64,000 nucleotides of DNA from Alphaproteobacteria bacterium (GTDB lineage: Bacteria > Pseudomonadota > Alphaproteobacteria > CALKHQ01). A program made the position numbers and the translations under genes. Below, one piece after another: positions 33,786 through 57,748 of this stretch. Location: positions 64,001 to 128,000 of the forward strand of contig CBDDFZ010000002.1 in the NCBI GenBank assembly GCA_965227515.1, written 5' to 3'. Under the pieces are notes generated by a model, which saw nothing but the letters and a program-made list of their open reading frames with translations, had not been told where the DNA came from and made no database searches. Numbering within the stretch: the stretch's first letter is position 1; each line of letters starts with the position of its first letter.

Positions 33786-33806
33786 GCCGTTTCCGTCAGT
33801 TGCATC

Positions 33807-34730: not shown

Positions 34731-34733
34731 CGC

Positions 34734-36443: not shown

Positions 36444-36506
36444 CCAGGAATCTCCAGTTATAGTGAGAAGATGCGGCCAGCACGCGGCTGGCCGCAACTC
36501 GACTTG

Positions 36507-37031
36507 TTAGTGCTGAATGTTGACCTGACCGACCATGCCGACCTGATAATGGCCGGGAATGTTGCAGGCGAACTCTAGATCGCCTGAGCCCGAGAAGGTC
36601 CAGGTCAGCTCAGTGGACTGACCGGGCTCCAGCAGGACGCTGTTGGGGTCGTCATGGTCCATCGAGCCGCCATCCATGCCCATCATGTCATGATTGATGC
36701 GATCGACCGCGATCATCCCGTGCTGGACCATGACCATCATCTCAGCCTGATGTTCCACGTGCATGGCGGGCGTGCCAATGTTGAATTCATGCAGTGCTAC
36801 ACCCTGATTAGCGATGACGAATCGGATGGTTTCGCCCTGGCTGACGGAAATCGACTCCGGTTCGAAGTAGTTGTCCTGCAAAACGATTTCGACGGTCCGA
36901 CTGGCAGAAGCGGGGTCGCCCGGCTGGCCGATCTGAGTATTGTTGACGGCATCGGCCTGAGCCACGCTGGCAAGGGTGCCCGCGGCGGCAATCGAGCACG
37001 CGCAAGCAAGGATAGACTTGGCAATAGTCAT
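36507..37031 (-). CDS. Periplasmic cupredoxin (CopI-like)
   Basis: Signal peptide, HEFNIG, Met/His-rich loop, FACNIPGHYQVGM. Confidence 0.9.
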   Translation of the reverse strand: MTIAKSILACACSIAAAGTLASVAQADAVNNTQIGQPGDPASASRTVEIVLQDNYFEPESISVSQGETIRFVIANQGVALHEFNIGTPAMHVEHQAEMMVMVQHGMIAVDRINHDMMGMDGGSMDHDDPNSVLLEPGQSTELTWTFSGSGDLEFACNIPGHYQVGMVGQVNIQH

Positions 37032-38184: not shown

Positions 38185-38796
38185 ATGTCGGATGTCTTTT
38201 CCGCGATTGAGCTTGCGGTTGGCCCGTCGGGCGTCAGCACGGTGTCGTTGGCCCCGCAACAGGCACTGTTCCGCCAGGACGACCCGACAAGGGGCATGTT
38301 CCTGTTGAGGTCGGGGCGCGTCGACCTGATGCGGCACACGGCATCGGGCATCACCGCGCGCATCCATGCGGCACGCGCCGGCGAGACGTTCGCGGAAGCG
38401 TCGCTATACAGCGACCGCTACCATTGCGATGCGGTGGCGGTGTCGGCCAGCGAAGCGATCCAGTTCCACAAGGCGGCCGTGCTGGCCGCCCTCGCTCGCC
38501 AGCCCGAGCTGGCAAGCGCCATGTCGCATCACCTGGCCGCCTCGTTGCGCGAGACGCGGCGGCGCATCGAGCTGCTGTTCGTGACGCCGTTGTCCGAGCG
38601 CCTCCATCAGCGTCTGGCCGATCACGCCAACAGCGACGGCGCGCTCCCGCCCCATACAACGACAAAGACCATCGCGGAGGAAATCGGCGCCACGCCGGAA
38701 GCCACCTATCGCGCACTTGCGCAACTCGAACGCCAGGGTCGGGTCGAGCGGGTCAGGTGCGGGACAATCAGGCTTCGGGCGATCCCGCGATCCTGA
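38185..38796 (+). CDS. Crp/Fnr-family transcriptional regulator
   Basis: cNMP-binding-like domain (LFRQDD...[10 protein letters not shown]...YHCDAVA) and HTH ([16 protein letters not shown]). Confidence 0.88.
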
Positions 38797-41098
38797 CCGA
38801 CCTCAGCCTTAGCGCGTTGCCGATCACCGACACCGACGACAGGCTCATGGCGGCGGCGGCCAGCATCGGGGAGAGCATGACCTCGAGGAACGGGTAGAGG
38901 ATGCCGGCGGCGATCGGCACCCCGGCGGCATTGTAGAAAAACGCGAAGAACAGGTTCTGGCGGATATTGCGCATGGTCGCCTGCGCCAGGTGGCGCGCGC
39001 GCAGGATCGCGTTGAGGTCGCCCTTGACCAGAGTGATGCCGGCGCTCTCCACCGCTACGTCGGCGCCGGCCCCCATGGCGATGCCGACATCGGCCGCGGC
39101 CAAAGCCGGCGCGTCGTTTACCCCGTCACCGGCCATGGCGACACCATGTCCATCCGCCTGGAACCGGCTCACCAGGTCCGCCTTGGTCTGCGGGCTTGCC
39201 TCCGCGTGCACTTCGTCGATGCCGAGCGTGCCGGCCACCGCCTCGGCGGTGCGCCGGTTGTCGCCGGTGGCCATCACGATCCGGAGCCCCGCTTCGTGCA
39301 GGGCGGCGATTGCGGCGGGCGTGGTTTCCTTGACTGGGTCGGCCACAGCGAGGATGCCGGCGGCCTTGCCGTCGACACCGACGAACATCGCGGTCTTGCC
39401 CTCGCCGGCCAGTTCCGCCGCGCGCTCCGAGAGCGACCCAAGTTCGACCCCGAGATCATCCATCAGCGCGGCATTGCCAAGCGCCACCTCGCGCCCGTCC
39501 ACCGTACCGCGTACGCCCTTGGCAGTGATCGCCTGGAAGTCATTGGCCGACGATAGGGTCAATTGCCTTTCCTTCGCCCCTGCCAGGATCGCCGCCGCCA
39601 GCGGATGCTCCGAGCCCTGCTCCAATGCGGCGGCCAGTGCCAGCATCTCCCCTTCGTCATCCGAGGCGATAACATCGGTCAGCTTGGGCTTGCCCTCGGT
39701 CAGGGTGCCGGTCTTGTCGACCACCAGCACGTCCACCTTGGCGAACCGCTCCAGCGCCTCGGCATCGCGGATCAGCACGCCGAGCCCGGCACCGCGCCCG
39801 GTCGCCACCATGATCGACATCGGTGTGGCCAGCCCCAGCGCGCACGGGCAGGCGATGATCAGCACGCTAACCGCGGCGATGAGCGCGAACGCGAATGCCG
39901 GCGACGGTCCGAAAATCAGCCACACGACAAAGGCGATGACGGCGATGGCGAGCACCAGCGGCACGAACCAGCCCGCGACCCGGTCGGCCAGCGCCTGGAT
40001 CGGCGCGCGGCTGCGCTGGGCTTTCGCCACGAGGTCGACGATCCGAGCCAGCATGGTATCGGCGCCGACTCGTTCGGCTTGCATGACGAAGCTGCCGGTG
40101 GTGTTGAGCGTGCCGCCGGTGACCGCATCGCCGTCCGCCTTCTCCACCGGCATCGGCTCGCCGGTCAGCATACTCTCGTCGACCGCCGAGCGGCCCTCGA
40201 TCAACACGCCGTCCACCGGCACGCTCTCGCCCGGACGCACGCGCAGACGATCGCCGGCCTGGACTTGGTCCAGCGGCACGTCGATTTCGTCATCGCCCTC
40301 AATGCGGCGGGCGGTCTTTGGAGCAAGGTCCAGCAGGGCCCGGATTGCATCGCCGGTGCGCTCACGCGCGGCGAGCTCTAACACCTGGCCGACCAGCACC
40401 AGGATGATGATGACCGCGGCGGCCTCGAAATAGATCGGCGGGCCGCCATGCCCATCACCCATGTGACCGGGAAAGAGGCCCGGCGCCACCATCGCTACCA
40501 CGCTGAACACATAGGCGGCACCGGTGCCGATGGCGATCAGGGTCCACATGTTGGTGTTGCGGGTGACGATGGAGCGCCATCCGCGGCGGAAGAAGGGTGC
40601 GGCAGCCCACAACACGACGGGCGTTGCCAGCGCGAACTGCAGCCAGCGGGCCACCTCGACGCCAAGCCAGTCGGCGAACGGGATGCCGATGTGGCTGCCC
40701 ATCTCCAGCGCGAACACGCCGATCGCCAGCGGCGCCCCGACCCACAGCCGGCGCCGGAAATCCACCAGCTCGGGATTAGGACCGGCGTCGGCGCTCGGCG
40801 TCATCGGCTCCAGCGCCATGCCGCAGATCGGGCAGTCGCCGGGCGCGTCGCGCACGATCTCCGGGTGCATCGGGCAGGTGTAGCGCGTGCCCGGCGCAGC
40901 GGGAGCCGGCGTCCCCGACGAGCGCTCGCCAGCCTCGAACCGCTCCAGGCACTTGCGCGAGCAGAAGTAGTAAGTCTCTCCTTCGTGCTCTGAGACATGC
41001 TCCGCAGTTGAGGGGTCGACGGTCATGCCGCAGATCGGGTCACGAACCGCGGTTCCCTCAGGATGACTATGGTCGTGGTGATGCGCTTGCACGGACAT
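38768..41098 (-). CDS. P1B-type Cu(I)/Ag(I)-exporting ATPase with YHS and heavy-metal-binding domains
   Basis: DPICGM/YYFCS (YHS), [54 protein letters not shown]. Confidence 0.97.
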
Positions 41099-41147
41099 GG
41101 GCTTGCCCCCAGCCGCGGAGCCGGACAATCCCGCCGCGGTGTGTCCA

Positions 41148-41178
41148 TATATGGAGTTTCCAGTCACTGGAAGCTCAA
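41148..41178 (-). promoter_or_regulatory. CueR-dependent promoter of the Cu-ATPase
   Basis: TTGAGC-19 bp-CATATA, with the perfect dyad TTCCAGT-n-ACTGGAA (41158-41172) in the spacer. Confidence 0.8.
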
Positions 41179-41205
41179 GCCAATTCTGAATCGACAATCA
41201 CTGTA

Positions 41206-41236
41206 TTGACATTCCAGCAACCGGAACCCTTATTCT
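41206..41236 (+). promoter_or_regulatory. CueR-type promoter of the cueR operon
   Basis: TTGACA-19 bp-TATTCT containing ACATTCC-agcaacc-GGAACCC. Confidence 0.8.
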
Positions 41237-41261: not shown

Positions 41262-41663
41262 ATGAACATCAGCGATGCGGCCGGCCTGAGCGGATTGCCC
41301 AACAAGACCATCCGCTATTATGAGGACATCGGGCTGGTGCAGCCACAGCGCAGCGGTAATGGATACCGCGCATTCACCGAGAGCGACGTGCATAAACTTC
41401 GCTTCTTGTGTCGCGCACGCTCGCTTGGATTTTCGATCGAGGATTGCCGCGCGCTTCTGGACCTATATGAAGAGCGGCATCGATCAAGCGCCGACGTAAA
41501 ACGGATCGCCAAGGCCAATCTGGCGCAAATCGACATGAAGATCGGCGAGTTGCAGGCGATGCGTCATACGCTGGTCCATCTGATTGACAGTTGTCATGGC
41601 GACGACAGGCCCGATTGCCCAATACTCGATGATCTGGCCGGTGCCGCATGGGCATCGCCCTGA
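41262..41663 (+). CDS. cueR: Cu(I)-responsive MerR-family regulator
   Basis: KTIRYYEDIGL, NGYR, RARSLGFS, and the C-terminal SCHGDDRPDCPIL metal loop. Confidence 0.96.
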   Translation: MNISDAAGLSGLPNKTIRYYEDIGLVQPQRSGNGYRAFTESDVHKLRFLCRARSLGFSIEDCRALLDLYEERHRSSADVKRIAKANLAQIDMKIGELQAMRHTLVHLIDSCHGDDRPDCPILDDLAGAAWASP

Positions 41664-42055: not shown

Positions 42056-42607
42056 ATGATGCGAACAGCGGCAGCAATTGCAGCGACCGCAGCTGTAGCG
42101 GCAGCAACTTTGAGTGCGTATGGCCATACGGGCGCCTCCGGCGTCGTGAAGAAACGCATGGACGCCATGGGAGTTCTTGGCGACGCTATGGAAGCGTTGA
42201 CAGGCATGATGCGCGAGGAGACGCCTTACGACGCTGAGCGCGTGCGTTTGTTGGCTCAAGATATTGCGATCCACGGCGGCGCGGCTCTGACGGAATTGTT
42301 TCCCGAGGGCAGCGCCGACCCGCCATCCGAGGCCTTGCCTCAAATCTGGGGCGAATGGGATCGCTTCGCGGGTCTCGCGGATCAACTTGCTTTGGTGGCT
42401 CGAGCGCTCGAAGCCGTAGCCGACAGTCCGCGGTCCGATGGAGACGATATGATGTCAGGCGGCGGCATGATGTCGGGTGGTGGCATGATGGGCAGCCCCA
42501 TGACACCGGACTATGACATGTTGATCGAAATGCCCCCGGACATGGTGTTTCGACAACTCGCCCAGACCTGCACAGCCTGCCATCAGGACTATCGCCGGGA
42601 GGAATAA
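42056..42607 (+). CDS. Cytochrome c' / c556-type protein with Met-rich insert
   Basis: Signal peptide, SEALPQIW..WDRF, C-terminal CTACH, MMSGGG repeats. Confidence 0.88.
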   Translation: MMRTAAAIAATAAVAAATLSAYGHTGASGVVKKRMDAMGVLGDAMEALTGMMREETPYDAERVRLLAQDIAIHGGAALTELFPEGSADPPSEALPQIWGEWDRFAGLADQLALVARALEAVADSPRSDGDDMMSGGGMMSGGGMMGSPMTPDYDMLIEMPPDMVFRQLAQTCTACHQDYRREE

Positions 42608-43510
42608 ATGTCTCGACGCAAAGTTCTTGGCGTCGGGGCACTTGTTATTGTGATTGTCGGAACCGGCACGGCGTACATGGTCGTGCGCGGCCCCGACATT
42701 CCGCTCCGCCGCCTAGACGGTCTGACCGGCAACATTGATCGCGGTGCCTACGTCGCGAGGTTGTCCGGATGCATCGCCTGCCACACCGATGCCCGCAATA
42801 ACGGTGCGGTTCTCGCGGGTGGCGGGGCGACCGAGACCGCCTTCGGCACCTTCTATGCGCCGAATATCACGCCCCACCTGGAAGATGGTATCGGCGGATG
42901 GTCGATCGATGATTTCAGTCGAGCGCTGACGGCCGGCCTGTCTCCCGATGGCAGCCACTACTTCCCGGTGTTTCCGTACGCTTTCTACACACGGATGTCC
43001 GATCAGGACATCGTCGACTTATGGGCTGCGGTCAATTCCGTGCCGCCGGTGGCCAGCGGCCCGCCCGAACACGAGCTGGATTTTCCGTACAGCGTAAGAG
43101 CCGGCGTTGGCCTATGGAAATGGTTGTATCTCGATAACGGCGAACTGGCACCTGACCCGTCCCGGCCCGAGTCCTGGAATCGCGGTCGCTACCTCGCGCT
43201 CGGTCCGGCTCATTGCGGCGCATGCCACACGCCCCGTGACTTTCTCGGCGGTCGGCAGCTCGAATTGCGTTGGACCGGCGGCGAAGGGCCTGATGGCGAG
43301 GCGGTGCCGCCGATCACCGGTACCGCATTGAGCGACGCTGGTTGGACGGAAGAGGATCTGGCCTTTGCATTGAGAACCGGCATCGTCCCGGGCGGCGATG
43401 CCTTTGGCGGCTCAATGGCAGAAGTTGTCAGGGATGGCTCGCAATTCTGGAGCGGTGACGATCTGTCAGCCATCGCCACATACGTATTTTCTGTGGAGAG
43501 CGCGGAATGA
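42608..43510 (+). CDS. Diheme cytochrome c (membrane-anchored)
   Basis: CIACH and CGACH, APNITP...GIGGWS, RGRYL. Confidence 0.9.
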   Translation: MSRRKVLGVGALVIVIVGTGTAYMVVRGPDIPLRRLDGLTGNIDRGAYVARLSGCIACHTDARNNGAVLAGGGATETAFGTFYAPNITPHLEDGIGGWSIDDFSRALTAGLSPDGSHYFPVFPYAFYTRMSDQDIVDLWAAVNSVPPVASGPPEHELDFPYSVRAGVGLWKWLYLDNGELAPDPSRPESWNRGRYLALGPAHCGACHTPRDFLGGRQLELRWTGGEGPDGEAVPPITGTALSDAGWTEEDLAFALRTGIVPGGDAFGGSMAEVVRDGSQFWSGDDLSAIATYVFSVESAE

Positions 43511-44910
43511 CGTTGACCCGTCGAGATTTCCTGACTGCAGGCGCGGCACTGGTAACGGCATCGGCCATCGCTCGTCGCTCCGCCACAGCGGATGTGGCAA
43601 CGGATCCGGATGTACCAACCATCCGGGCACAGCGTGGCGGTGCGTGGATGGTGCCTGGGGAATCCCTGCGGACAGAAATCTGGGGCTATGAGGGGCTGGT
43701 TCCCGGGCCGGACTTGAGACTGCCGCGAGGTGGTCGCTTGATCCGGAGGTTCGTGAACGAGCTGCCTCAGCCGTCAACCATACATTGGCATGGTATTCGC
43801 CTTCAGAACGCCATGGACGGTGTGCCGGAACTGACACAGGCGGTGGTGCAACCCGGTGAGGAGTTCCTTTACGACTTTACAGTGCCGGATGCGGGGACCT
43901 TTTGGTACCACTCCCACAATCAGTCGTGGGAGCAAGTGGCACGCGGCCTATATGGCGCGATCGTCGTCGACGAGCCCGATCCGCCTGAGGTCGACCGTGA
44001 CGACGTGTTGCTGATCGATGATTGGCGACTGACGGCCGAAGGCGAGATCGACGAAAGTTTTGGCGCGATGTCCGACTGGTCGCACGCTGGCCGTCTCGGA
44101 AACTGGCTCACCGTCAACGGCAATGGCGCTTGGCATGCAGCGGTTGGACACAATTCACGGCTGCGGCTGCGCTTGGTAAATACGGCAAACGCGCGGGTAT
44201 TCACGCTGACAATGAAGGGCCTCGAAGGCTGGATGGTCGCCCAAGATGGCCAACCGCTCGACGCACCAGTACCTGCAAATTGGATCACTTTGGCGCCGGG
44301 TCAACGGACCGACTTGATCGTCGACGTGATGGCAATGCCGGGGGAAGAAGGCAGCCTGGCAGCCGTCGATCGCAATCAAGTGTTTCGGTTGGCGACGTTC
44401 ATGGTTGCCGGAGAATCGCGGACCGTACGACTTGGCGAACCCGAGCCGCTACCTGCAAATCCGAACCCCGCACTCGGCAGCATCGAAACCGCAAGAAGAG
44501 TGACGCTGACAATGTCCGGCGGAGCCATGGGCCGAATGACCGGCGCCACCTTGTCCGGACAGTACCTCGGCATGGCCGATCTTGTGGAACGCGGAAAGGT
44601 GTGGGCCCTGAACGGCAGCGCCGATATGCCCGACAAGCCACTTATAGATGCAGCGTTAGGGGAGACGGTCCGGCTGACGATTGTCAATGAGACGGCGTTT
44701 CCGCACGGCATGCACCTGCACGGCCATCACTTCAGGCAGGTCTTCGCCAACGGTTCGACCGGCCCATGGCGAGACACGATCTTGCTGCAGGGCGCTGAAA
44801 CGCTCGAAGTGGCCTTTGTCGCTGACAATCCCGGAGATTGGCTGTTGCACTGCCATATGCTCGAACACGCTGTCGCCGGAATGAACACCTGGATACGCGT
44901 GTCCGGATGA
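43507..44910 (+). CDS. Tat-exported multicopper oxidase (CutO/CueO-like)
   Basis: TRRDFL Tat motif, IHWHG, WYHSH, HGMHLHGH, LLHCHMLEH..M. Confidence 0.95.
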   Translation: MTLTRRDFLTAGAALVTASAIARRSATADVATDPDVPTIRAQRGGAWMVPGESLRTEIWGYEGLVPGPDLRLPRGGRLIRRFVNELPQPSTIHWHGIRLQNAMDGVPELTQAVVQPGEEFLYDFTVPDAGTFWYHSHNQSWEQVARGLYGAIVVDEPDPPEVDRDDVLLIDDWRLTAEGEIDESFGAMSDWSHAGRLGNWLTVNGNGAWHAAVGHNSRLRLRLVNTANARVFTLTMKGLEGWMVAQDGQPLDAPVPANWITLAPGQRTDLIVDVMAMPGEEGSLAAVDRNQVFRLATFMVAGESRTVRLGEPEPLPANPNPALGSIETARRVTLTMSGGAMGRMTGATLSGQYLGMADLVERGKVWALNGSADMPDKPLIDAALGETVRLTIVNETAFPHGMHLHGHHFRQVFANGSTGPWRDTILLQGAETLEVAFVADNPGDWLLHCHMLEHAVAGMNTWIRVSG

Positions 44911-45377
44911 CACGTGTAACGCTAATCGCAATTTGCGCGCTCGGCGCCGCGCTCGTCAGTGCGTTTGGCTATTGGTATCTCAGCGATAACGGCTCTGAGA
45001 CACCGCCTTCAGCCATGCTGCCGGCCTTTGGCCTGGAAGAGGGAGCCGGTCTTTACGCCCGGTTTTGTGCGGACTGCCATGGTGACAATTTGGAAGGCCA
45101 ACCCAACTGGCAGGTAGCAGGCAACGACGGTGTATTGCCCGCACCGCCGCACGACGACTCAGGCCACACATGGCACCACCCAGACACAATGTTGTTCGAC
45201 TACACCAAGTACGGCGGGCAGGAGATGGCTGAGCGGATGGGCCTGGATGGCGTGGCCAGCGGCATGCCAGGTTTCGCCGATGTGATGACCGACGAGGAAA
45301 TCTGGACCGTCCTGGCCTTCATCAAGTCTCGTTGGTCGGAGCGGAACCGTCAGGCGCAGGCGCAACGGTCCCAATGA
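44907..45377 (+). CDS. Monoheme cytochrome c
   Basis: CADCHG, PAPPHDDSGHTWHH, SGMPGF. Confidence 0.9.
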   Translation: MTRVTLIAICALGAALVSAFGYWYLSDNGSETPPSAMLPAFGLEEGAGLYARFCADCHGDNLEGQPNWQVAGNDGVLPAPPHDDSGHTWHHPDTMLFDYTKYGGQEMAERMGLDGVASGMPGFADVMTDEEIWTVLAFIKSRWSERNRQAQAQRSQ

Positions 45378-45412: not shown

Positions 45413-45443
45413 TAGACCTTCCAGCAACCGGAAGCCGCAGAAT
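45413..45443 (+). promoter_or_regulatory. CueR-type promoter upstream of DUF411-dsbA-ldt
   Basis: TAGACC-19 bp-CAGAAT containing ACCTTCC-agcaacc-GGAAGCC; shares the 15-mer TTCCAGCAACCGGAA with the cueR promoter. Confidence 0.78.
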
Positions 45444-45498
45444 GAACTTCGGGAAACCTTGTAGGCGCGTGTCGCCTCAGCAACCAAGGGCATCAATA

Positions 45499-45954
45499 AT
45501 GGTCAGCAGATTCGCGAAATTGGTGACGGCGATTCTTACGCTGTTCGCTAGCCAGCAAGTGTACGCCGAACCTGAGGAGATGACGGTCTACAAGACACCC
45601 TGGTGTGGATGTTGTGCAGGCTGGGCGGACCATATCGAAGCTGGTGGTATGTCCGTGCAAATTGTCGAGCTTGAGGATCTGGAATCGATCAAGACGCTAG
45701 CCGGCGTGCCTGAGAGCCTCCGATCCTGCCACACCGCCATGGTCGGCGACTATGTCATCGAGGGCCACGTCCCGTTGGCGACTATCAGGGACTTGCTGGC
45801 GAGTCAGCCTGCGATCGCAGGCATAGCGGTGCCCGGCATGCCAATCGGCTCGCCCGGTATGGAAGGCCCCAACCCGCAACCGTACGAGGTCATCACCATC
45901 GAGGATGGCAAAGCCGGTGAAGTGTTCGCCTATATCATACCTTCGGAGAACTGA
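45499..45954 (+). CDS. DUF411 / CopG-type periplasmic copper protein
   Basis: YKTPWCGCC, SCHTA, IEGHVP, AVPGMPIGSPGME. Confidence 0.92.
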   Translation: MVSRFAKLVTAILTLFASQQVYAEPEEMTVYKTPWCGCCAGWADHIEAGGMSVQIVELEDLESIKTLAGVPESLRSCHTAMVGDYVIEGHVPLATIRDLLASQPAIAGIAVPGMPIGSPGMEGPNPQPYEVITIEDGKAGEVFAYIIPSEN

Positions 45955-45958
45955 TGTC

Positions 45959-46696
45959 ATGTTGAAACTTGGAACTGTATTGGCGCTTGCTGCGGTACTT
46001 TATGGCTCGTCGGCACTTGCTGACGACATAAGCCCGGAAGCTGAAGCCGAGATTCGGCAGATCGTCCGAGAGTATCTTCTCGAACACCCCGAGGTCATTC
46101 TTGAGGCCGTTGCGGTATTAGAGCAGCGACAGGCCGCGGAAGCAGCCGAGGCGCAAGCGCAAGCGTTGGGCGAGTTGCGGGACGCATTGGAACGCAATCC
46201 CGACAGCCCGGTATCCGGCAATCCCGACGGTGACGTAACCATCGTCGAGTTCTTCGACTACAATTGCAGTTTTTGCCGACGCGCTGTGCCAGTCATTCAT
46301 GCTCTCTTGGAAAGCGACGCTCAAATAAGGTACGTCTACAAAGAATTTCCAATCCTGGCTGAAAGCTCCATGTATTCTGCGCGGCTTGCCCTCGCCGTTA
46401 GTCGGTTGCAGCCACAACTCTATGAACCGCTACACAATGCACTGTTGTCAACCAGTGGTGCGCTCGACGAGGGTATCATAGATTCAATCGCTGAAAGCGT
46501 AGGCGTCGATCTTGAGTTGACAAAAGCAGAAATTGCGGACCCGTCTATTCAAGAGGAAATCGACAGAAATCTACAATTGGCCCAACTTCTTGGTATTAAT
46601 GGAACTCCAACATTTGTCATCGGGGACGCCGTCCTCGCTGGATTGCAGGACATCCGCGTGTTGGAACAAGCCGTAGATGATGTGCGTAATAAATGA
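45959..46696 (+). CDS. DsbA-family thiol-disulfide oxidoreductase (ScsC/Com1-like)
   Basis: Signal peptide, YLLEHPEV helix, EFFDYNCSFC, KEFPIL, GINGTPTF. Confidence 0.92.
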   Translation: MLKLGTVLALAAVLYGSSALADDISPEAEAEIRQIVREYLLEHPEVILEAVAVLEQRQAAEAAEAQAQALGELRDALERNPDSPVSGNPDGDVTIVEFFDYNCSFCRRAVPVIHALLESDAQIRYVYKEFPILAESSMYSARLALAVSRLQPQLYEPLHNALLSTSGALDEGIIDSIAESVGVDLELTKAEIADPSIQEEIDRNLQLAQLLGINGTPTFVIGDAVLAGLQDIRVLEQAVDDVRNK

Positions 46697-46867
46697 CGAC
46701 CAAACACTTTAGGGCATCAAAATTTCGTACGATGTTCAACTTCGCCCACCATCATTCATTCTCGGGTCAGAGAACCCATGTTTGGCTCGAGAATTCATGC
46801 GGAAATCGGACAGCAGTACGATGGCAAATGCTGTGCCGCGTCAGAAACGTCAACGGAGGATGATCAA

Positions 46868-48586
46868 ATGCACCAAGCAACCACGACAGACCATCCGAAC
46901 TTACGACAGAGGTTGATTAGCTCGACAGTTGCCACTCTGTCATTTGCCTGCCTCTCGACAATCAGCCTAGCCATGCAATCGGCCTACGCAAACGAGGAAA
47001 TGGAGCTGGTGGATGAGCCGCCGCATGAGGCAGTCGCGCTGATCGATATCGTCGAAAGTTTGGCTATTGCCGACAATGAAGGTGCCGAGAGTCTGGGGGC
47101 TCTATCTAGTTTCTATGAGCATAGAAACTATGCACCTGCCTGGGTAACCGAGGAGGGACCAACGGCCAATGGCCAAGCACTGTTGGCAGCCTTGCGCTCC
47201 GCCGACTCACATGGCCTAAATCCTGCAATTTATCGATTAGCTGAGATCGAGCAATTGGCGACCGCAACAGCAACAGACGACTTAGCTAAGTTAGATCGCA
47301 TGCTATCAGCCGCGTTTATTCAGTATGGCGGTGATCTAATGCAGGGCCGGTATCGGCAAGGAGAGGCGGCAGGCTCGGTCCAGTCCTACAGTACCGATTT
47401 GGATTTGTTGCAGCCATTGCGGTTCGCTGCCCAGTCTGGTGCGATTGACGAAGTTCTTCATGCCTTCACGCCTCCGCAGGAACAGTATCATCGGATCGTG
47501 GAGGCGCTTTCTCGCTACCGGGCGATTGCCAACGCTGGCGGCTGGCCACTCGTTGATATCAGCGGAAGTCTAGAACCGGGTGATTGGAGCGATGCGGTTG
47601 CTACGCTTAGGGAGCGTTTACGTGTAAGCGGAGACTACTCCGTCAACGTCGATCAAGTCGCAGATGCCAGTTTCTATGACCAAACACTCGCCGATGCTGT
47701 GAGGTTGTTCCAGGAACGACATGGTTTGTTGGTCGATGCTGTCGTTGGACCTCGAACGCTAGGTGAACTGAATACGACAGTCGAAATGCGGATCGCGCAA
47801 CTTGAGATTGCACTGGAGCGTTGGAGATGGTTGCCTCGGGATTTGGGGCAGCGCTACGTCATGGTGAATGTGCCAGCGTTTCACCTAACTGCTGTGGATG
47901 ATACACGCGGTGAACCCCTTACAATGCGAGTGATTGTAGGAACTAGGGAACATCAGACTCCAGTATTCAATGATACCATTGAGTATGTTCAAATGAACCC
48001 CTACTGGAACGTTCCATACAGCATCGCAACGGAAGAGTATCTACCGCAACTCATTCGCGATCCATTTTATCTTCTCAACCGAAATATCCGGATATTCTCC
48101 GGTAGTGGCGAAGTCAATCCGGTGCTCGTTGACTGGGCAGCTTATGGCGGGGGTGGCTTCCCTTACCATTTGCGGCAAGACCCTGGTGCGGGCAATGCTT
48201 TGGGCGACATCAAGTTCATGTTTCCCAATGGACATGCTGTGTACCTCCACGACACGCCAACACAGCCATTGTTCAATCGTACAACCCGCGCGTTTAGCCA
48301 TGGATGCGTTCGTGTGCATGACCCCATTGCATTGGCTGAGTTTGTGCTCGGTGTTGATCCTTCATACACGCGCGAAAGGATTACCTCGATGATTGGCTCC
48401 GAGCGCACTATTGATGTGAACCTGCCGGAAGAGATACCGGTTTATATCACTTATCAGACCGCTTGGGTCGATGATCATGGCAGTGTTCATTTCCGTCAGG
48501 ACATATACGACCGCGACTCTAGACTTCTGGCCAAGATGATGGACGACATACCAGAGGCGGGTGATGCGCAAATGGCGGCAAACTAA
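46868..48586 (+). CDS. YcbB/LdtD-type L,D-transpeptidase with peptidoglycan-binding domain
   Basis: HGLNP, FQERHGL (PG-binding), ERWRWL, VNVPAF, NPYWNVP, NALG.IKF, YLHDTP, SHGCVRV (catalytic His/Cys). Confidence 0.95.
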   Translation: MHQATTTDHPNLRQRLISSTVATLSFACLSTISLAMQSAYANEEMELVDEPPHEAVALIDIVESLAIADNEGAESLGALSSFYEHRNYAPAWVTEEGPTANGQALLAALRSADSHGLNPAIYRLAEIEQLATATATDDLAKLDRMLSAAFIQYGGDLMQGRYRQGEAAGSVQSYSTDLDLLQPLRFAAQSGAIDEVLHAFTPPQEQYHRIVEALSRYRAIANAGGWPLVDISGSLEPGDWSDAVATLRERLRVSGDYSVNVDQVADASFYDQTLADAVRLFQERHGLLVDAVVGPRTLGELNTTVEMRIAQLEIALERWRWLPRDLGQRYVMVNVPAFHLTAVDDTRGEPLTMRVIVGTREHQTPVFNDTIEYVQMNPYWNVPYSIATEEYLPQLIRDPFYLLNRNIRIFSGSGEVNPVLVDWAAYGGGGFPYHLRQDPGAGNALGDIKFMFPNGHAVYLHDTPTQPLFNRTTRAFSHGCVRVHDPIALAEFVLGVDPSYTRERITSMIGSERTIDVNLPEEIPVYITYQTAWVDDHGSVHFRQDIYDRDSRLLAKMMDDIPEAGDAQMAAN

Positions 48587-48750
48587 GAAGGTGCGTGGGG
48601 TGCTGCAGTTGAGATGTGACAGGTTATCAGCAAGCCATTAATCCAGTGATCGCTGATGCCGGTTCAGTTAAGACAGACAGAAAACTAGAGTTGTCAATGT
48701 ATGCGTGTGTGAGCCAAGGGATCCTGGCCGATTGATCAGGGTGGGTAGAA

Positions 48751-49419
48751 GTGGAAATACTTGGTCAGTCTCTCTTGCTCGCATTCGCCCTCGGTCTGTT
48801 GGGCTTCATCGAACCCTGCACAATTGGTGCTCACTTGCTTTTCTTGAGCAGTCACAAGGCCCGACCGTTGGGTCAGCGGCTCGGGGCAGCAGTGATATTT
48901 CTGATTGCCAGACTTGTGGTTATGGGTGGGTTTGGCGGCTTGGTCGTTGTTATTGGGCAGCAACTCATAAGTGTGCAGACGGGAGCATGGCTGGTCGTCG
49001 GCGTAATTTATCTTGCTCTTGGAGTTGCAATTATCGCGGGTTGGGACAAGTCGATGCAGCATCGTATTGGCCTTGGCCCGGAAAGCTGGAAGGCTGCCAC
49101 CAACCCACTTTTGCAGGGATTGGCATTCGGCCTCATCATACCAGCTTGTGCCGCGCCGATCCTGTTTGGCCTCATGGGCACCGCGACCGTGAGCGGATCT
49201 GCCGCTTCCGGATTTTTGATGATGGCGGTCTTCGCACTTGCATTGTCACTACCCCTTCTTCCGCTTTCGGCCGTGCCTAGCATTTCAGGCCCTCTTGACC
49301 GGCTCGGAGATTGGTTGCGGCCGCGTCGCTGGCTTCTCGGCGCAATTTTTGTGGCGCTGGGAATTTGGTCCATATGGTTTGGATTGTTCGTTGATCCAGT
49401 TGACTGGAGTGGGACGTGA
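48751..49419 (+). CDS. CcdA/DsbD-type transmembrane electron transporter
   Basis: Six TM helices with two conserved cysteines (FIEPCT, IPACAAPIL). Confidence 0.8.
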   Translation: MEILGQSLLLAFALGLLGFIEPCTIGAHLLFLSSHKARPLGQRLGAAVIFLIARLVVMGGFGGLVVVIGQQLISVQTGAWLVVGVIYLALGVAIIAGWDKSMQHRIGLGPESWKAATNPLLQGLAFGLIIPACAAPILFGLMGTATVSGSAASGFLMMAVFALALSLPLLPLSAVPSISGPLDRLGDWLRPRRWLLGAIFVALGIWSIWFGLFVDPVDWSGT

Positions 49420-50657
49420 CCCCGCGCCGCCGATTCTGGCATGTGGCGGGCGCGGGTACCGCGTTTCAGGCAGGATCGGCCGCGGTGGACAGCGCAACGG
49501 TGATGTCGGCGCTGGTTTTCCAGCTAACGGGAAGCGCAATTGCCGTCGGCGCAGTTCCCACTATTCTTCGGCTTGGCTGGCTTCTACCGCAGATTTTCGT
49601 TGGCTACTTGGCCGGCTGTGCCGTCTCCTCGATGCCGTTCTACATCCTGGGAGCATTTGGGCGAAGCGCGGCGATTGCTTTCTTAGCGATCGTACTCTGG
49701 ATTGGGTCAGCGGCAGGCTGGTCAAATGCTACGATCGGCGCGGCAACATTGGGAATATGGGTGCTGTATGCGTTTCTGAGCGGTGTCGTTGGCGTTCCGT
49801 ACAACGACATCGTCGCCCGATCGGTCCCGTCTGAACTCCGTAGTCGGCTGCTCTCGGTTCGCTTTCTCGGAGGCGGAATAGCTGCGCTCTTGGTCGCAGT
49901 GCTGGCTGACAGACTAATGCGATCGCTCGACTTTCCCGTCTCTTACGCCGCTATACTGGGGATTGCGGCGGTTCTAATGATGCTCTCATCCATAGTTTTT
50001 GTAGTGATGGGAGAACCGGAAAAAACGGCACCACTTAAAGCAGCCGAGAATTTCAAGGCCTATCTGAGCGACGGTGTGGCAGTGTTCAGAGGCGACACAG
50101 TCTTCCGTCACTTTTTATTTGCTCAGTGGTGCGGTAGCGCCGTTCTCATCGCCGCTCCTTTTTTTATCGTTGCAGCCGCCGCGCTGGGCATGTCCTTGGA
50201 AAACGTGGCGCTTCTGCTCGTCGCCCAGACTGCCGGCACGCTCGCCAGCAATCCGCTTTGGGGGTGGTGGGGCGATCGCCTTGGCAAAATGAGCCTGATG
50301 CGAAGCATTGCGGTTGCGCGTGCGGCCCCGCCAACAGTCATTCTGAGCGTGCTATTCATCCCAGTGTCGCACGATTGGCTCATGGCGATCTTGCTGGTGG
50401 TCTTTTTTGTTATCGGAGCATTGGCGAGTGGGCTTACAATCGCGGTCATCGGACTCCTGATGGAAATATCTCCAGAAGACCGTCGCCCAGCCTACAGCGG
50501 CTATTTCAGTGCGCTTACGGCGCCCGCATACATTTTTCCAATTTTCGGAGGCCTTACTGCAGTCACCTTTGGGATATGGTTTGTGTTCGCGATATCGCTC
50601 CTTGCCACATTTGCTCAGACCGTAGCTCTCTCAAGAATAGACATGACAGAAAGTTAG
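49416..50657 (+). CDS. MFS transporter
   Basis: About 12 TM helices, WGDRLG loop motif, EISPEDRRPAY; 4-bp overlap with the ccdA-like gene. Confidence 0.85.
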   Translation: MTPRRRFWHVAGAGTAFQAGSAAVDSATVMSALVFQLTGSAIAVGAVPTILRLGWLLPQIFVGYLAGCAVSSMPFYILGAFGRSAAIAFLAIVLWIGSAAGWSNATIGAATLGIWVLYAFLSGVVGVPYNDIVARSVPSELRSRLLSVRFLGGGIAALLVAVLADRLMRSLDFPVSYAAILGIAAVLMMLSSIVFVVMGEPEKTAPLKAAENFKAYLSDGVAVFRGDTVFRHFLFAQWCGSAVLIAAPFFIVAAAALGMSLENVALLLVAQTAGTLASNPLWGWWGDRLGKMSLMRSIAVARAAPPTVILSVLFIPVSHDWLMAILLVVFFVIGALASGLTIAVIGLLMEISPEDRRPAYSGYFSALTAPAYIFPIFGGLTAVTFGIWFVFAISLLATFAQTVALSRIDMTES

Positions 50658-52418: not shown

Positions 52419-54164
52419 TCAAACCTCCTTGGCCGTAACGACTGCGCCTTCGCTGGATATATGAGCCTTCAGACGTTCAGCCTGGCTCTTGGGTGTCGCG
52501 ATCGCCAGCAGCCTTTTGGCTCTTGAGGCGGCCACATATAGTTTTCGTGCATCCTCGGCCTTGTCGGCCGGCTCGCCTGTTTCCAAGAAATCCAAGATAC
52601 CCTTGAGAGTGGATGTCGTGACGACACAGACAGCCGGATACTCCTTACCTTTGACCGAATGAATCGTCCGGGGCATCGCTGTTTCGGCTGGTACAGCCGC
52701 AAGCGCCGCATTCAACCCGGCATTCCAAGCCAGCTTTTGAGAAATAGATTTTCCGTCTTCAATCGTTAGTTCGCTTGATAAGAAATCCTTGGCAGCGTCG
52801 TGCCACGCCTTTGCCCCTGCATATTTTATCGGATCAAACCTAAGGGACCTGAGAACAGAGATAACTTTCGGACGCCAGCTAGCAGGTTCTATTTCATTAT
52901 CTGTGAGATATTGATGGTACGACCGGTCGCCTAGGCGCCCCTCCAGTTCCAGGAGAATCCGGTGGACGCTCTCGATGGCCGTTTTCATGTCACTAAAGCC
53001 CGCAGCGAAATGAAAGTCGGTTACGGCTTCGGCAAGCCGGATAGTCCGTTGGCCTGAATTGGTGGGCCGCGGCTGACCCGCGGCGGCCGCACCGCTTGCC
53101 TTTGTTGCCGCGACGATGGGCGCAGATGAAACATCGACACCGGCCTCTCTTAGCAGGGCACAAAATGCCGTGCCAATTGAAGCCGGAACTCCTTTGCCCG
53201 GATAGGACAGAATCTGAACCGGCGCGGTTTCATCCTTCAATTGCCCGAGAGCATCGTCGGGTGCGCCGCGAGCAGCGGGTGGCCTGAACTGGGCGAGGGC
53301 CTTGCAGATATTAGGCGTAGATCGGAAGTTGCCGGTCAAATCCTTGCGCTGGTCGGAGGGAAACGTATCCGCGAACTCAAAAAGATGATCGGTGACGCCG
53401 CCGCGAAATTCATAAATCGATTGATGGGGATCGCAAACGACTTTCACGGGCAGGCCGGAATCACGCAACCATGAGATGACAGTCAGATCGTCGGGGTTGC
53501 AGTCCTGCGCTTCATCTACGATGACCTCGCGAAACCGACCCCTGAGCGCACCGGCGATCCGGCTCGCAAGCGTCTGGTCATTGAGGCGTTCAAGCGCGAC
53601 AGCACGCGCTTCGTCAAAGCCCAACTGGCCCCGTTCGCGTAAGCTGGCACGGAGCCGGGTAGCGGCTGTCGTATACGCTTGAAGCTGATAGTCCTGCTTT
53701 TGGGATACGTCAAAGCCCTTGCGCTTGGCCGCCAAATCAATAATCGCGCCTGTTTGTGGGCAAAAACAGGATAGGGGCAGAGCGTGAGCGCCATTGAACG
53801 GCTCGACTGCAAGATGCGCGATGTCGGCAAGCAGGCGCGGGCGTGCATCGCAATCCTTGAGGCTAAACGGCGCAACTAGGAACTGCCAGACGAAACTGTC
53901 GAAGGAGCCGACAAAGCTCGGAAAGAGGGGCGTGGAAAGCAGTCCTTCCTGCCTGAGCCGGGTATCGAGTTCAATAACGGCGGCTTGCGTAAAGGATATG
54001 AACGCCACGCCGCGTCCCGGCAACATACTCCGAAACACCCGGCGGGCGCGTTCGGTCATCACCCTCGTTTTTCCGGCGCCAGGACAGGCCGTTACAAAGG
54101 CCGAGCCGTCATGACCGATAACAGCGCGTTGCTCGTCGGTGGGATTGAAGGGTAGCTGGCTCAT
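52419..54164 (-). CDS. gajB: UvrD-like helicase (Gabija GajB type)
   Basis: ACPGAGKT, VDEAQD, DPHQSIYEFRG, NFRS, TIHSVKGKEY, YVAASRAK; 4-bp overlap with the upstream OLD nuclease. Confidence 0.82.
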   Translation of the reverse strand: MSQLPFNPTDEQRAVIGHDGSAFVTACPGAGKTRVMTERARRVFRSMLPGRGVAFISFTQAAVIELDTRLRQEGLLSTPLFPSFVGSFDSFVWQFLVAPFSLKDCDARPRLLADIAHLAVEPFNGAHALPLSCFCPQTGAIIDLAAKRKGFDVSQKQDYQLQAYTTAATRLRASLRERGQLGFDEARAVALERLNDQTLASRIAGALRGRFREVIVDEAQDCNPDDLTVISWLRDSGLPVKVVCDPHQSIYEFRGGVTDHLFEFADTFPSDQRKDLTGNFRSTPNICKALAQFRPPAARGAPDDALGQLKDETAPVQILSYPGKGVPASIGTAFCALLREAGVDVSSAPIVAATKASGAAAAGQPRPTNSGQRTIRLAEAVTDFHFAAGFSDMKTAIESVHRILLELEGRLGDRSYHQYLTDNEIEPASWRPKVISVLRSLRFDPIKYAGAKAWHDAAKDFLSSELTIEDGKSISQKLAWNAGLNAALAAVPAETAMPRTIHSVKGKEYPAVCVVTTSTLKGILDFLETGEPADKAEDARKLYVAASRAKRLLAIATPKSQAERLKAHISSEGAVVTAKEV

Positions 54165-55981
54165 TTGACCAGCGCTTTGATGGCGTCCTGGATATAGTCG
54201 GGAACGTTAAATGTATCGCTTGCGCCAACCTTCTCCGCCAGGAGCTGGGCAAAGTCACCCTTCGGCGTGTTCTTGAATAGCTCCTGTATGGCTTTGGCGC
54301 GGATATCGCCATCATTGGCGACCGCTGCGTCCCATTTCGCGGCGGATCGGGGATGAAGCGCCAGATACACGTCTTTCATACATGCGGCATTGCCAGCAGC
54401 GACCAGTTCGGTTTCCAGTGAGTACGTATTCACGCAAACATCGAGAACTTCTGCCGCGCCATTACCTGCTGCCAGCGCATCAAGATCGGCCTTCCGCTTG
54501 TCGCCAGACGCCGCCTCCCCTTCATCTGCTGTGTGCTTGTCGCCGTCCGTTACAATGACTAAACGGTCGGCGATCCGTACTCCGTCATAGGGGGCCAAGA
54601 GGGCCTTGGCGTATGGCACAAAATCAACACCGTCAATCGGCACGAAGACGGCTGAACGAAATATCCGAAAGTCCGCTGGATGGTCTTTGAGGACATAATG
54701 CTTGGCGAGAACGGGCAACAGCAACGCTTCGGCAATGCCTTCGACCAGCAGCACCCTGCCGCCAAACAGCAGGGCAGATTTGGTAACGTCGAGATAGCGG
54801 TCAATCTTCCTGCGGTCGGGCTCAGTAAGGTCAAGTTTGGCAAGAGGGATACACCGGGATTCGGGCCGCGGTGGCGGCTTCTCTGCTGCCTGTGTTTCAG
54901 CGGCCTCATCGGGTGCAGGCTTGTCCGCCGCTTCACCACCCATCACCACTGGCGCGATCGATCGGACGAAAACGAGGCTCTTGCTAGGGACCCATGCGGA
55001 CAGGTTAGGAGAATGCGTCGCGACGATGACCTGCAAATGCCCGGCGGGTGCGTCCTTGTCGTCCTTGGCTTTAAGGGAATGTTCGGCCCGCTCTTCCAGG
55101 AAGTTCAATACGGCGGCCTGGAGCTGCGGATGCAGATGGGCTTCCGGCTCTTCGACAAGGAACATCGTCAGTTCGGCATTATCGGTCCTTTCAAGCTCGA
55201 CGGCGATGGTGGCGATGTACAGAAGGTTCGCAAATCCGTGTCCGGAATATTGCAGGTCTTCTGGCGTAAAACTGTGATCGGCGAGTTTGAAGCGTAGGTC
55301 ACGCGCGATGTCGATAAGCTTTTCATCCGTGCTAAAACCGAGCGTCGCGCCCTGCCGCCGGACACCGGCAGTCAGAATGTCTAGTCCTGTCGCAACGGCG
55401 GTATCAACATCGGTCAGAATGGGATGCTCGCTTGTCCGGGCGAGGCTCTTCGCTACGTCCTCGGGATCACGCTTGCCGAGAAAGTGGTTGAGCAAAGCGT
55501 GAATGCGTGAGGGGTGGCCGGAGGCAAGTGCGTGCTTGGCGTCTCGCAGCGGCGGCAGATAGACATGGCGGATCATATCGTGGGCGCCCGCCTCGGGAAC
55601 GCTCCTAAAGCGGCCCGCCCAAAGAGTAGGCCGAATATGTCCTGGATGGCCTGTTGCATCGTAGGTCAGCCCAAAACATGCCTCCTGCAGCGTGTCGTCT
55701 GTCGTTGCGGAAATCAGCCTTCCTTGTTGCGGTGCGGATAGTTCACAAAATTTGGCGCAAATCTCGAAACTGTGTGGTATTGCGCCAAAGCGAATATCAG
55801 TTGGGTCGCAATATAATTCTCGGCGCCCGCTCAAAGGTCTAGATAAGAGTCGAATGGCATCTATGATATTACTCTTGCCGCCGTTATTTTCTCCAACCAA
55901 AATGGCAAGTCCTTTTTGAAATTCAATTGTATCGCTTGAAAACGACCGGAAGTTTGATAACTGCAGTTGTGCCAAATGCAT
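54161..55981 (-). CDS. gajA: OLD-family ABC-ATPase + TOPRIM endonuclease (Gabija GajA type)
   Basis: GENNGGKS (Walker A), VEEPEAHLHP (Walker B/D-loop), ATHS, LVEGIAE and TDGD (TOPRIM). Confidence 0.85.
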   Translation of the reverse strand: MHLAQLQLSNFRSFSSDTIEFQKGLAILVGENNGGKSNIIDAIRLLSRPLSGRRELYCDPTDIRFGAIPHSFEICAKFCELSAPQQGRLISATTDDTLQEACFGLTYDATGHPGHIRPTLWAGRFRSVPEAGAHDMIRHVYLPPLRDAKHALASGHPSRIHALLNHFLGKRDPEDVAKSLARTSEHPILTDVDTAVATGLDILTAGVRRQGATLGFSTDEKLIDIARDLRFKLADHSFTPEDLQYSGHGFANLLYIATIAVELERTDNAELTMFLVEEPEAHLHPQLQAAVLNFLEERAEHSLKAKDDKDAPAGHLQVIVATHSPNLSAWVPSKSLVFVRSIAPVVMGGEAADKPAPDEAAETQAAEKPPPRPESRCIPLAKLDLTEPDRRKIDRYLDVTKSALLFGGRVLLVEGIAEALLLPVLAKHYVLKDHPADFRIFRSAVFVPIDGVDFVPYAKALLAPYDGVRIADRLVIVTDGDKHTADEGEAASGDKRKADLDALAAGNGAAEVLDVCVNTYSLETELVAAGNAACMKDVYLALHPRSAAKWDAAVANDGDIRAKAIQELFKNTPKGDFAQLLAEKVGASDTFNVPDYIQDAIKALVK

Positions 55982-56797: not shown

Positions 56798-57748
56798 CTA
56801 TCCGGCGTCGTTGTGGTTATCTGATGAGGATGCCTCGTTTTCGGCGTTCTGACGAGACGCCTCGGCAGCTGCGGCTGCCTTTTCGAAGCCCTCTGCGAAT
56901 AGACCCATTCCGAGGGCTGCACCCTTGTGCCGCGCCAGCTGCGCCTCGATCGTTTCAGGGAGATCGCCGACCTCCCTTAGCATTGTTTTCAACCGCTTTC
57001 GAAGTTCAGACTTAGTCATTGTCTTGAGGTCCATCATGAAGCACACCGACGAGAACTCGTCACGACGGAAGCTGGGCGGTAGCGCCATCTCGCACCAGCT
57101 CGCTAAAAAAAGTGCACCGGATACATCCTTGCCTTCTATGGTCCATATCAAAGGCTCGCCGCATTTGTCTTCAAGTGCGGAGCAGACATAGAACCAGTCT
57201 CGCATCAGTGCGCCTTGCTTGAATGGGGTGGATTCGTCCTCGGTCAGCGGGCCAAGCAGATGGACTTCGACCTTGGCCTCATCGAGCAGAATGTCGTCGG
57301 GGTGGGGGTATAGGCGGGGTGGTTCACGTCGTTGCTGCTTATATTGGGCCAGGAGGCGCTGCCCCTCCAACTTTCTCCGAGCGAAGTACTCAAAGTTTTT
57401 TAGAGCACGCTTCTGTGCTTTGCGCTCTTCTTCTTTCAAAAGCTCCATCGCGTATCTTTTCGCTAGGCGATTGCCTTTGATGCCATCAAGGACAATACTT
57501 CGCGCGATAGCGTTCGCCGCACTCATTTCAACAGCTTGGCCGTTCTCATTCAGAGTCAGACGACGGAATGCCTCTTGCTCCAACAAACGTTCGAGGCTCC
57601 CATCGCGGAACCGCTTCGGTTCTGGGGCCTGCTTTGCCTTCTTAGGCCGCCCCTTTGGATTGCCGGACTGGCCCTTCCTGAATCTATGCTCTGCCGGCGG
57701 CTTGCCGTAGCCCACCGAGTAGGTCGCATCCTTGCGTTGCCTGCTCAT
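56798..57748 (-). CDS. DUF5681-domain protein (terminase-small-subunit-like N-terminus)
   Basis: YSVGYGKPPAEHRFRKGQSGNPKGRPK signature. Confidence 0.85.
   Translation of the reverse strand: MSRQRKDATYSVGYGKPPAEHRFRKGQSGNPKGRPKKAKQAPEPKRFRDGSLERLLEQEAFRRLTLNENGQAVEMSAANAIARSIVLDGIKGNRLAKRYAMELLKEEERKAQKRALKNFEYFARRKLEGQRLLAQYKQQRREPPRLYPHPDDILLDEAKVEVHLLGPLTEDESTPFKQGALMRDWFYVCSALEDKCGEPLIWTIEGKDVSGALFLASWCEMALPPSFRRDEFSSVCFMMDLKTMTKSELRKRLKTMLREVGDLPETIEAQLARHKGAALGMGLFAEGFEKAAAAAEASRQNAENEASSSDNHNDAG

Follow-up and report, generated by a model that had tools for sequence, protein, structure and literature searches.

A CueR-type promoter and a YcbB-type L,D-transpeptidase in an alphaproteobacterial copper island suggest resupply of a copper-poisoned target as a possible arm of resistance

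Why would a bacterial copper cluster carry a gene for an enzyme that cross-links peptidoglycan? Efflux, oxidation and sequestration are the usual explanations of copper resistance, and the question is raised by a run of five genes in a stretch of 64,000 nucleotides (nt) from an alphaproteobacterial assembly (GCA_965227515.1, contig CBDDFZ010000002.1, positions 64,001 to 128,000), hereafter referred to as the window. Behind a MerR/CueR-type promoter, the run encodes a DUF411/CopG-family protein, an ScsC-type thioredoxin-fold protein, a YcbB-type L,D-transpeptidase (Ldt), a small CcdA-like membrane protein and a major facilitator superfamily (MFS) transporter (Table 1). It forms the distal end of the second of two copper clusters in the window, the order before it being copA (minus strand), cueR, a 117-amino-acid (aa) open reading frame (ORF), cytochrome c', cytochrome c, a multicopper oxidase (MCO) and cytochrome c. 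An initial annotation had listed five co-oriented genes with the motifs CGCC, CSFC, HDTP...SHGC and a pair of cysteines, all of which is borne out by Pfam and NCBIfam scores and by the translations. The explanation towards which we lean, though only slightly, is that the run may include a CueR-driven arm of target resupply and thiol repair, in which CopG, ScsC and an extra Ldt would be made as copper rises.

Table 1. Coordinates and supporting evidence for the features discussed (positions in the window).
Feature	Position	Strand	Evidence
MerR/CueR-type promoter	45413..45443	+	-35-like TAGACC, 19-nt spacer, -10-like CAGAAT
DUF411/CopG-family protein, predicted periplasmic	45499..45954	+	PF04214 90.4 bits; CGCC motif
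ScsC-type thioredoxin-fold protein	45959..46696	+	PF18312 ScsC_N 50.3 bits, PF01323 DSBA 89.9 bits
YcbB-type L,D-transpeptidase	46868..48586	+	Scaffold 107.4, PG_binding_1 36.7, YkuD 93.5 bits
CcdA-like DsbD_2-family membrane protein	48751..49419	+	PF13386 DsbD_2 33.7 bits, cutoff 24.9
MFS transporter	49416..50657	+	MFS_1 62.1 bits; start overlaps CcdA-like stop by 4 nt
CueR-type promoter of cueR and downstream cytochrome/MCO genes	41206..41236	+	TTGACA, 19 nt, TATTCT
CueR-type promoter facing copA	41148..41178	minus	TTGAGC, 19 nt, CATATA
cueR, presumed regulator of the 45413 promoter	41262..41663	+	TIGR02044 163.4 bits, cutoff 147.4
Upstream backbone: cytochrome c', cytochrome c, MCO, cytochrome c	42056..45377	+	Pfam
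tRNA-Met, start of the lower-GC island	26012-26088		
Large serine recombinase, 678 aa	26290-28326	minus	adjoins tRNA-Met

The case for copper control begins with the promoter in front of the five genes, whose spacer holds the dyad core TTCCAGCAACCGGAA at 45419-45433, of the pattern TTCC-N7-GGAA. This 15-mer occurs in one further exact copy in the window, at 41212-41226, in the same register and directly upstream of cueR; given the first copy, further exact copies are expected by chance at 9e-5 (64 kb, both strands). When up to 3 mismatches are allowed, the operator is matched 6 times in the window, whereas 100 shuffles gave 1.53 matches on average and never more than 4. The promoter facing copA holds a related dyad, TTCCAGTGACTGGAA, at 41158-41172, and the over-long 19-nt spacer is common to all three promoters. 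The CueR-type promoter that had been proposed at 45413-45443 is thus upheld by its spacer, by the exact operator copy at cueR and by a regulator that scores as a CueR equivalog, and the sites together define a predicted three-promoter CueR regulon made up of copA, of cueR with the cytochrome/MCO genes, and of the genes behind 45413.

The promoters also bear on where the genes start. The DUF411 ORF opens at 45442, but since transcription from the promoter must begin beyond the ATG at that position, the likely start is 45499, which is followed by a signal-peptide-like segment. The likely ScsC start, at 45959, lies 4 nt past the DUF411 stop and leads into a signal-peptide-like N-terminus. The Ldt ORF opens at 46778, with a likely start at 46868, where GGAGG stands 7 nt before and a signal-peptide-like N-terminus follows. 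In a separate observation, the listed copA ORF (38768-41197, minus strand, with TTG at 41197) crosses its own CueR-type promoter (41178-41148), so that the true copA start must be further inside; copA relatives align from residue 46 or later.

The Ldt itself has the YcbB-type architecture. All three domain scores are above their cutoffs, the catalytic motif HDTP...SHGCVR is intact, and S-[HS]-G-C is found in 111 of the 120 best homologues (the window protein counted), with S-A-G-C in one more. The protein matches YcbB in the Protein Data Bank (PDB; 7aj9, E 9.7e-63) and shares three-domain architecture and catalytic motif with E. coli LdtD (YcbB), a stress-induced peptidoglycan cross-linker that belongs to the Cpx stress regulon (PMC12729407; here and below, PMC numbers refer to the parts of each paper that concern the statement). 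The resemblance ends there, as the window protein is distant from LdtD, scoring 268.4 bits against a cutoff of 425 on the LdtD equivalog model NF007891, its promoter is CueR-type and not Cpx-type, and its neighbours, on a mobile copper island, are ScsC and CopG. By these scores it classifies as a YcbB-type Ldt but not as an LdtD equivalog. It is also rather isolated, being a singleton in a set of 5.8 billion proteins in which eight relatives are 50-56% identical and the remainder at most 48%. Its nearest relative (P0002) and a relative of ScsC (P0419) have the same longest-contig entry, 1,515,980 bases.

An extra Ldt under copper control would be understandable in view of what is known of these enzymes. 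Copper inhibits Ldts (PMC9302775) and, among the metal salts tested in one study, was the sole inhibitor, with an effect across many species (PMC11390936). LD-transpeptidation is essential in A. tumefaciens (PMC11527210), the catalytic cysteine of Ldts is preserved by DsbG, and ScsB is the redox partner of ScsC (PMC10907172). In the reading that we favor, the island CueR, on meeting cytoplasmic Cu(I), would activate the promoters of copA, of cueR with the cytochrome/MCO genes, and at 45413, the last of which would yield three exported periplasmic proteins, namely CopG, an ScsC-type reductase or isomerase, and the YcbB-type Ldt. CopG would take part in copper redox handling. Because copper blocks Ldts at their catalytic cysteine and Ldts are unusually important in Alphaproteobacteria, the induced Ldt could resupply 3-3 cross-linking capacity for as long as copper is present. 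ScsC would keep periplasmic cysteines reduced or correctly paired, both the single cysteine of the Ldt and the CxxCH sites of the island c-type cytochromes, and its electrons would come from a membrane protein of the DsbD superfamily, for which the CcdA-like protein is the candidate here. We infer copper induction, co-transcription, enzymatic activity and each redox hand-over, as well as a benefit that lies in resupply and not in copper tolerance of the enzyme.

Two genes lie between promoter and Ldt. The DUF411 protein has CGCC, and CxCC is the copper-cluster motif of the CopG/DUF411 family. The ScsC-type protein has the expected layout of an N-terminal ScsC_N and a DsbA-like domain, with a CSFC active site and a T-P cis-Pro loop; C103, C106, T216 and P217 are invariant among 40 sequences, and PDB sequence matches are 3gyk, 7rgv, 4xvw and 4gxz. 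The active site reads CPYC in 75 of the 120 best homologues and CAFC and CGFC in the two nearest. The protein resembles the copper-linked Scs systems of Salmonella, Proteus and Caulobacter in its two domains and in its matches to PmScsC, StScsC and 7rgv, and differs from them in its CSFC site. An ScsB (a DsbD-like protein with periplasmic alpha and gamma domains) is a further difference, as none occurs among the 42 ORFs covered by our Pfam scan of the window, which begins beyond the first ~22 kb; the small CcdA-like protein is the only DsbD-superfamily candidate partner for ScsC found in the window, whereas related islands (L033-L035 below) carry ScsB-like DsbD-domain genes. The promoters differ as well, that of Salmonella being CpxR-dependent (PMC10907172). 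Like E. coli DsbG and DsbD, where a periplasmic thioredoxin-fold protein and a membrane reductase keep the Ldt cysteine usable (PMC10907172), the window would pair such a protein with a membrane partner; unlike DsbG, its ScsC scores 17.5 bits on NF008657 (cutoff 124) and has an N-terminal oligomerisation domain, and the candidate partner is a small CcdA-like protein in place of DsbD.

Do Ldts accompany copper genes elsewhere? Plasmid searches in which the CcdA-like protein, the MFS and ScsC served as queries, and no Ldt did, led to islands that combine the backbone of the window with other Ldts. The island of Roseibium sp. Sym1 (L026), collinear with the window at 43-66% identity, runs cytochrome c', cytochrome c, MCO, a hypothetical gene, Ldt, DUF2933, Ldt, cytochrome c, ScsC, CcdA-like and MFS; an Ldt remnant was sought in its 1.1-kb stretch from ScsC to the CcdA-like gene, with none found. 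In Acuticoccus (L033), MCO-Ldt-DUF411-Ldt-cytochrome c-DsbD-domain protein (ScsB-like, 682 aa)-ScsC follow closely on each other along one strand, and CopA and cueR lie nearby. Mameliella (L034) and D. shibae pDSHI03 (L035) have Ldt, cytochrome c, ..., cytochrome c', cytochrome c, MCO, cytochrome c and ScsC, and a divergent DUF2933/DsbD-like pair behind a CueR-type box. An Ldt adjoins a CcdA-like gene within the copper island of Limimaricola (L024), and in Antarctobacter (L043) the Ldts lie on the strand opposite DUF411-LspA-Lnt. The upstream backbone of the window has its genes in the order seen in L026, L034 and L035 (40-51% identity). More broadly, these Roseobacter and Stappiaceae plasmid islands (pDSHI03, Roseibium sp. 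Sym1) share with the window cytochrome c'-cytochrome c-MCO-cytochrome c-ScsC, CopA and CueR at 40-68% identity and contain Ldts. Their Ldts, however, are short, YkuD-only and in other positions, whereas that of the window is YcbB-type and follows ScsC, and the window has an extra CueR promoter and CopG before ScsC.

A search with one of the short island Ldts gave a similar picture. From it seven contexts in different genera were picked, and six are clearly metal-related: Hoeflea (L030), with MCO-Ldt-DUF411-Ldt-cytochrome c, and A. pusense, Nitratireductor, Jiella, Rhizobium sp. and Martelella; the seventh, S. medicae, has just a cupredoxin gene nearby. These metal islands also encode LspA, Lnt, PBP2, peptidoglycan-binding proteins, DsbA/DsbB, SCO and PCuAC. 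Leaving aside the YcbB type, at least four lineages can be told apart among the island Ldts, far removed from one another (35-49% identity between lineages), and the catalytic histidine and cysteine (H...S-x-G-C) are kept in all 13 that were aligned. As these gene orders and alignments show, non-orthologous Ldts recur in alphaproteobacterial plasmid copper and metal islands beside MCO, CopG, cytochromes c, ScsC, and DsbD/ScsB or CcdA.

Some further features of such islands may be recorded here. The Limimaricola Ldt (L024:7962-8549) ends in a His/Met-rich tail and is followed, 3 kb downstream, by a second, unannotated Ldt-like stretch (L024:11236-11625; 52% identity). On alphaproteobacterial plasmids, the metal islands L038-L040, L043 and L044 additionally encode signal peptidase II, apolipoprotein N-acyltransferase, PBP2, M23 peptidases and peptidoglycan-binding proteins, and the Klebsiella sil island (L046) has DUF411, DUF2933 and an M23 endopeptidase.

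The strength of the association depends on how loci are sampled. Among 20 loci fetched with non-Ldt queries (mean length 16.3 kb), tblastn finds an Ldt-like gene within ~8 kb in 6, and one more has an annotated Ldt cut at the locus edge. With 14 Ldts per genome as the chance baseline (PMC11527210) and assumed genome sizes, the probability of 6/20 is ~1e-4 to 1e-2, and a conservative collapse to 4/17 loci gives 4e-3 to 8e-2, values that are indicative only, as the positive loci are related islands and not independent draws. This relatedness is the first of several points that weigh against the reading we favor. In the sample least open to bias, drawn with CopG as the seed and spread down the ranking (all non-enterobacterial rows and the first K. 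pneumoniae row), just one of eight loci has an Ldt. The association, then, holds for some islands, for the most part those of the cytochrome/MCO/ScsC type on marine alphaproteobacterial plasmids, and does not extend to copper islands generally.

The relatives of the window Ldt itself point the same way. A scan of contigs, one genome per species, gave 23 loci with an Ldt at 30-48% identity; no ScsC, DUF411, CcdA-like, MFS, MCO or CueR neighbour was found at any of the 23, and a distant P-type ATPase was found at one. On plasmids, all 82 records of Ldt relatives are below 60% identity, the 40 listed being at 29-39%. The exact arrangement of the window is therefore a single case. The adjacency proposed earlier thus recurs by function, through other Ldt lineages in copper islands, and does not recur for the Ldt of the window.

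It is likewise less than certain that the five genes form one operon. The gaps are 171 nt from ScsC to Ldt and 164 nt from Ldt to the CcdA-like gene. A scan of both found neither a terminator-like hairpin nor a sigma-70 consensus promoter, and both fold with ordinary energies (z -1.09 and +1.17), so that co-transcription across the two gaps is possible as far as sequence can tell; a further point on the negative side is that gaps of this length could hold promoters that are not recognisable. Composition adds to the picture. GC and third-position GC (GC3) are 0.583/0.704 for DUF411, which resembles the upstream copper genes (GC3 0.65-0.70), 0.524/0.524 for ScsC and 0.528/0.532 for the Ldt, both unlike either neighbour, and 0.556/0.570 and 0.568/0.604 for the CcdA-like and MFS genes. 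The cluster is therefore a mosaic of three composition blocks, and ScsC and the Ldt, which share values different from those of their neighbours, were apparently acquired together.

The first alternative is that the redox genes serve the island cytochromes and general disulfide repair, with the Ldt as an independent spare that has no dedicated protector. ScsC and a membrane reductase would then repair copper-catalysed mis-oxidation, chiefly at the CxxCH sites of the three or four upstream c-type cytochromes. We regard this as a serious contender, if somewhat doubtful. It is favored by the upstream genes of the window (a cytochrome c', two cytochromes c and an MCO), by L034 and L035, where ScsC comes directly after the cytochrome c/MCO genes with no Ldt between, by Aquibium (L036), where ScsC overlaps a canonical CcdA in a locus with no Ldt, and by the description of the Scs system as general copper and redox quality control in PMC10907172. 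On the other hand, ScsC and the Ldt are adjacent and of the same composition in the window, and in L033 a single strand carries the Ldts, CopG, the ScsB-like protein and ScsC in close succession. This alternative is compatible with resupply and thiol repair in everything except the hand-over from ScsC to the Ldt.

The second alternative concerns the CcdA-like/MFS pair, which may be a module in its own right that acts on thiophilic metals (Cu, Hg), is unlinked to ScsC or the Ldt and merely came to lie behind the latter; with its two cysteines it would pass metal ions on or reduce a protein that handles metal. We consider this quite possible, though on the doubtful side. The CcdA-like protein has one cysteine in each of two membrane segments, Cys23 (EPC) and Cys133 (PACAAP), of which, in 47 sequences, the first is invariant and the second present in at least 90%; among 171 full-length relatives, EPC is found in 154 and PACAAP in 130. 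The two conserved cysteines thus stand in motifs of the P-C type known from the DsbD superfamily, and the best PDB fold match to its model (pLDDT 85.5) is the electron transporter CcdA (5vkv), a weak one (prob 0.96, TM 0.42, E 0.11). Both points argue against a mere metal module, as does the presence of a DsbD-superfamily gene within ~5 kb of ScsC in all islands examined (window, L026, L033, L034, L035 and L036). Since every ScsC island examined has such a gene nearby, a role as electron donor to ScsC seems plausible.

Other results weigh in the opposite direction, and so against the relay in the reading we favor. A PDB sequence search with the CcdA-like protein gave no meaningful match, and the protein falls below the PF02683 DsbD_TM cutoff (22.5 against 27.1 bits), so that of the CcdA-type label originally given the two cysteines and the CcdA likeness stand, while the proper name is DsbD_2-type. 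The pair is kept in L026, L027, L025 (as a fragment) and L041, and it follows merA in L025, L027 and L041, as the CcdA-like gene alone does in L028, the four merA-linked loci being mercury operons of Roseivivax, Roseibium and Leisingera plasmids. A CueR-like promoter of its own, with a 19-nt spacer, precedes the CcdA-like gene in L026, L027 and L028 (in the latter two, between merA and that gene), whereas in the window the pair has no visible promoter of its own, which counts against autonomy there. Its GC is unlike that of ScsC and the Ldt. Both protein families offer alternative associations: the CcdA-like member P0324 carries a cupredoxin-like fusion, and an MFS relative is paired with a lysyl-phosphatidylglycerol (LPG)-synthase-like gene under a MerR-type regulator. 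By these gene orders and promoters, the pair is a separate mobile module. The dedicated CcdA-to-ScsC relay of the initial annotation is in keeping with the DsbD-superfamily gene near each ScsC, but since the pair behaves as an independent module, merA-linked elsewhere, such a relay is just one of several readings, and self-contained metal handling is about as plausible as electron donation. A complex prediction for the ScsC catalytic domain with the CcdA-like protein (using alignments) gave 0.00 in both runs, which had no controls, and weighs neither way.

Four observations on the two families are added for completeness. The CcdA-like family is small: of 1.84 billion proteins, it accounts for 258 representatives (E <= 0.001). 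In P0324, one of 150 members listed, a signal peptide and cupredoxin-like domain (37.2 bits, cutoff 27) are fused in front, and P0272 has an HMA-like tail that is sub-threshold. On a Ruegeria plasmid (L042:4959-7224), an MFS 47% identical to that of the window overlaps a gene with a lysyl-phosphatidylglycerol-synthase domain in place of the CcdA-like gene, downstream of a MerR-type regulator and beside DUF411. An Atlas look-up with the MFS returned generic MFS clusters and no lead on a substrate.

That ScsC and the Ldt were merely transferred in, with no selection for a copper role and with their shared orientation incidental, is improbable: their GC3 of 0.52-0.53 against 0.65-0.70 upstream, the uniqueness of the arrangement and unrelated cargo such as Gabija on the same island would fit it, but different Ldt lineages have repeatedly been recruited to copper islands at different positions, the CueR operator stands directly upstream, and the DUF411-ScsC junction measures 4 nt.

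Returning to resupply and thiol repair, we would tentatively extend this reading beyond the window. Alphaproteobacterial copper and metal islands may regularly carry replacement copies of copper-poisoned, thiol-dependent envelope enzymes, controlled by a copper sensor and accompanied by a reductase relay in the periplasm, so that resistance would arise from resupply and repair of the target and not from removal of the metal; the window Ldt would then be a copper-inducible peptidoglycan repair enzyme. The enzymes in question would be Ldts of several lineages and, in some islands, LspA, Lnt, PBP2, M23 peptidases and DsbA/DsbB, while the relay would be ScsC with ScsB, CcdA or a CcdA-like protein. 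This extended scheme may well prove too broad. If island Ldts are indeed copper-induced and needed under copper stress, a second principle of resistance would follow, in which the poisoned target is kept supplied and reduced. It would join two literatures, on the inhibition of Ldts by copper and on periplasmic thiol repair by Scs and Dsb proteins, within the bacterial class where LD-cross-linking is most important, and it would account for the frequency of redox and cell-envelope genes in metal islands. The idea is directly testable, as cultivable strains carry related plasmids.

The view that this is not a described system has held, in that our full-text literature searches returned no description of Ldts as part of copper islands or of a CueR regulon. 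A 2025 review of Ldts mentions copper once, in its reference list. A 2026 genome-mining paper on alphaproteobacterial metal islands has redox genes and no Ldt in its table, and its section 3.5 describes the clustering of redox with metal genes as poorly understood (PMC13707694). The nearest printed precedent is the M23 metallopeptidase PcoG of the enterobacterial pco/sil island (CHASRI), a peptidoglycan enzyme in a copper island (PMC4824010) that also has DUF411 and DUF2933. PcoG, however, is a DD-endopeptidase and not a transpeptidase, and pco/sil lacks ScsC and CcdA and is under two-component regulation.

The setting of the cluster is that of a mobile element. The flanking parts within the window have a GC of 0.68-0.70, while a stretch from ~26 to 60 kb has 0.53-0.64, and this lower-GC stretch (26012-~60000) is a copper genomic island of ~34 kb integrated beside tRNA-Met, which the serine recombinase adjoins. 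Near-identical DNA in plasmids amounts to nothing relevant, with just one 52-nt match, and an Rfam scan of the window returned tRNA as its sole match. Two copper clusters lie on the island, together with a Gabija pair and a ParB-methylase. The other copper cluster (31175-37031, minus strand) encodes CopB (34026-34730), a PcoA-type MCO (34734-36497) and a cupredoxin (36507-37031), as well as DUF305, a MauE-like protein and MarR; the TTCC-N7-GGAA box was sought in it and not found. Beyond the MFS gene, GajB (52419-54164, 819.6 bits) and GajA (54161-55981, 948.8 bits) on the minus strand make up a Gabija pair that PADLOC scores as complete, followed downstream by a DUF5681 protein and by a DNA methyltransferase with a fused ParB_N domain (57745-59076).

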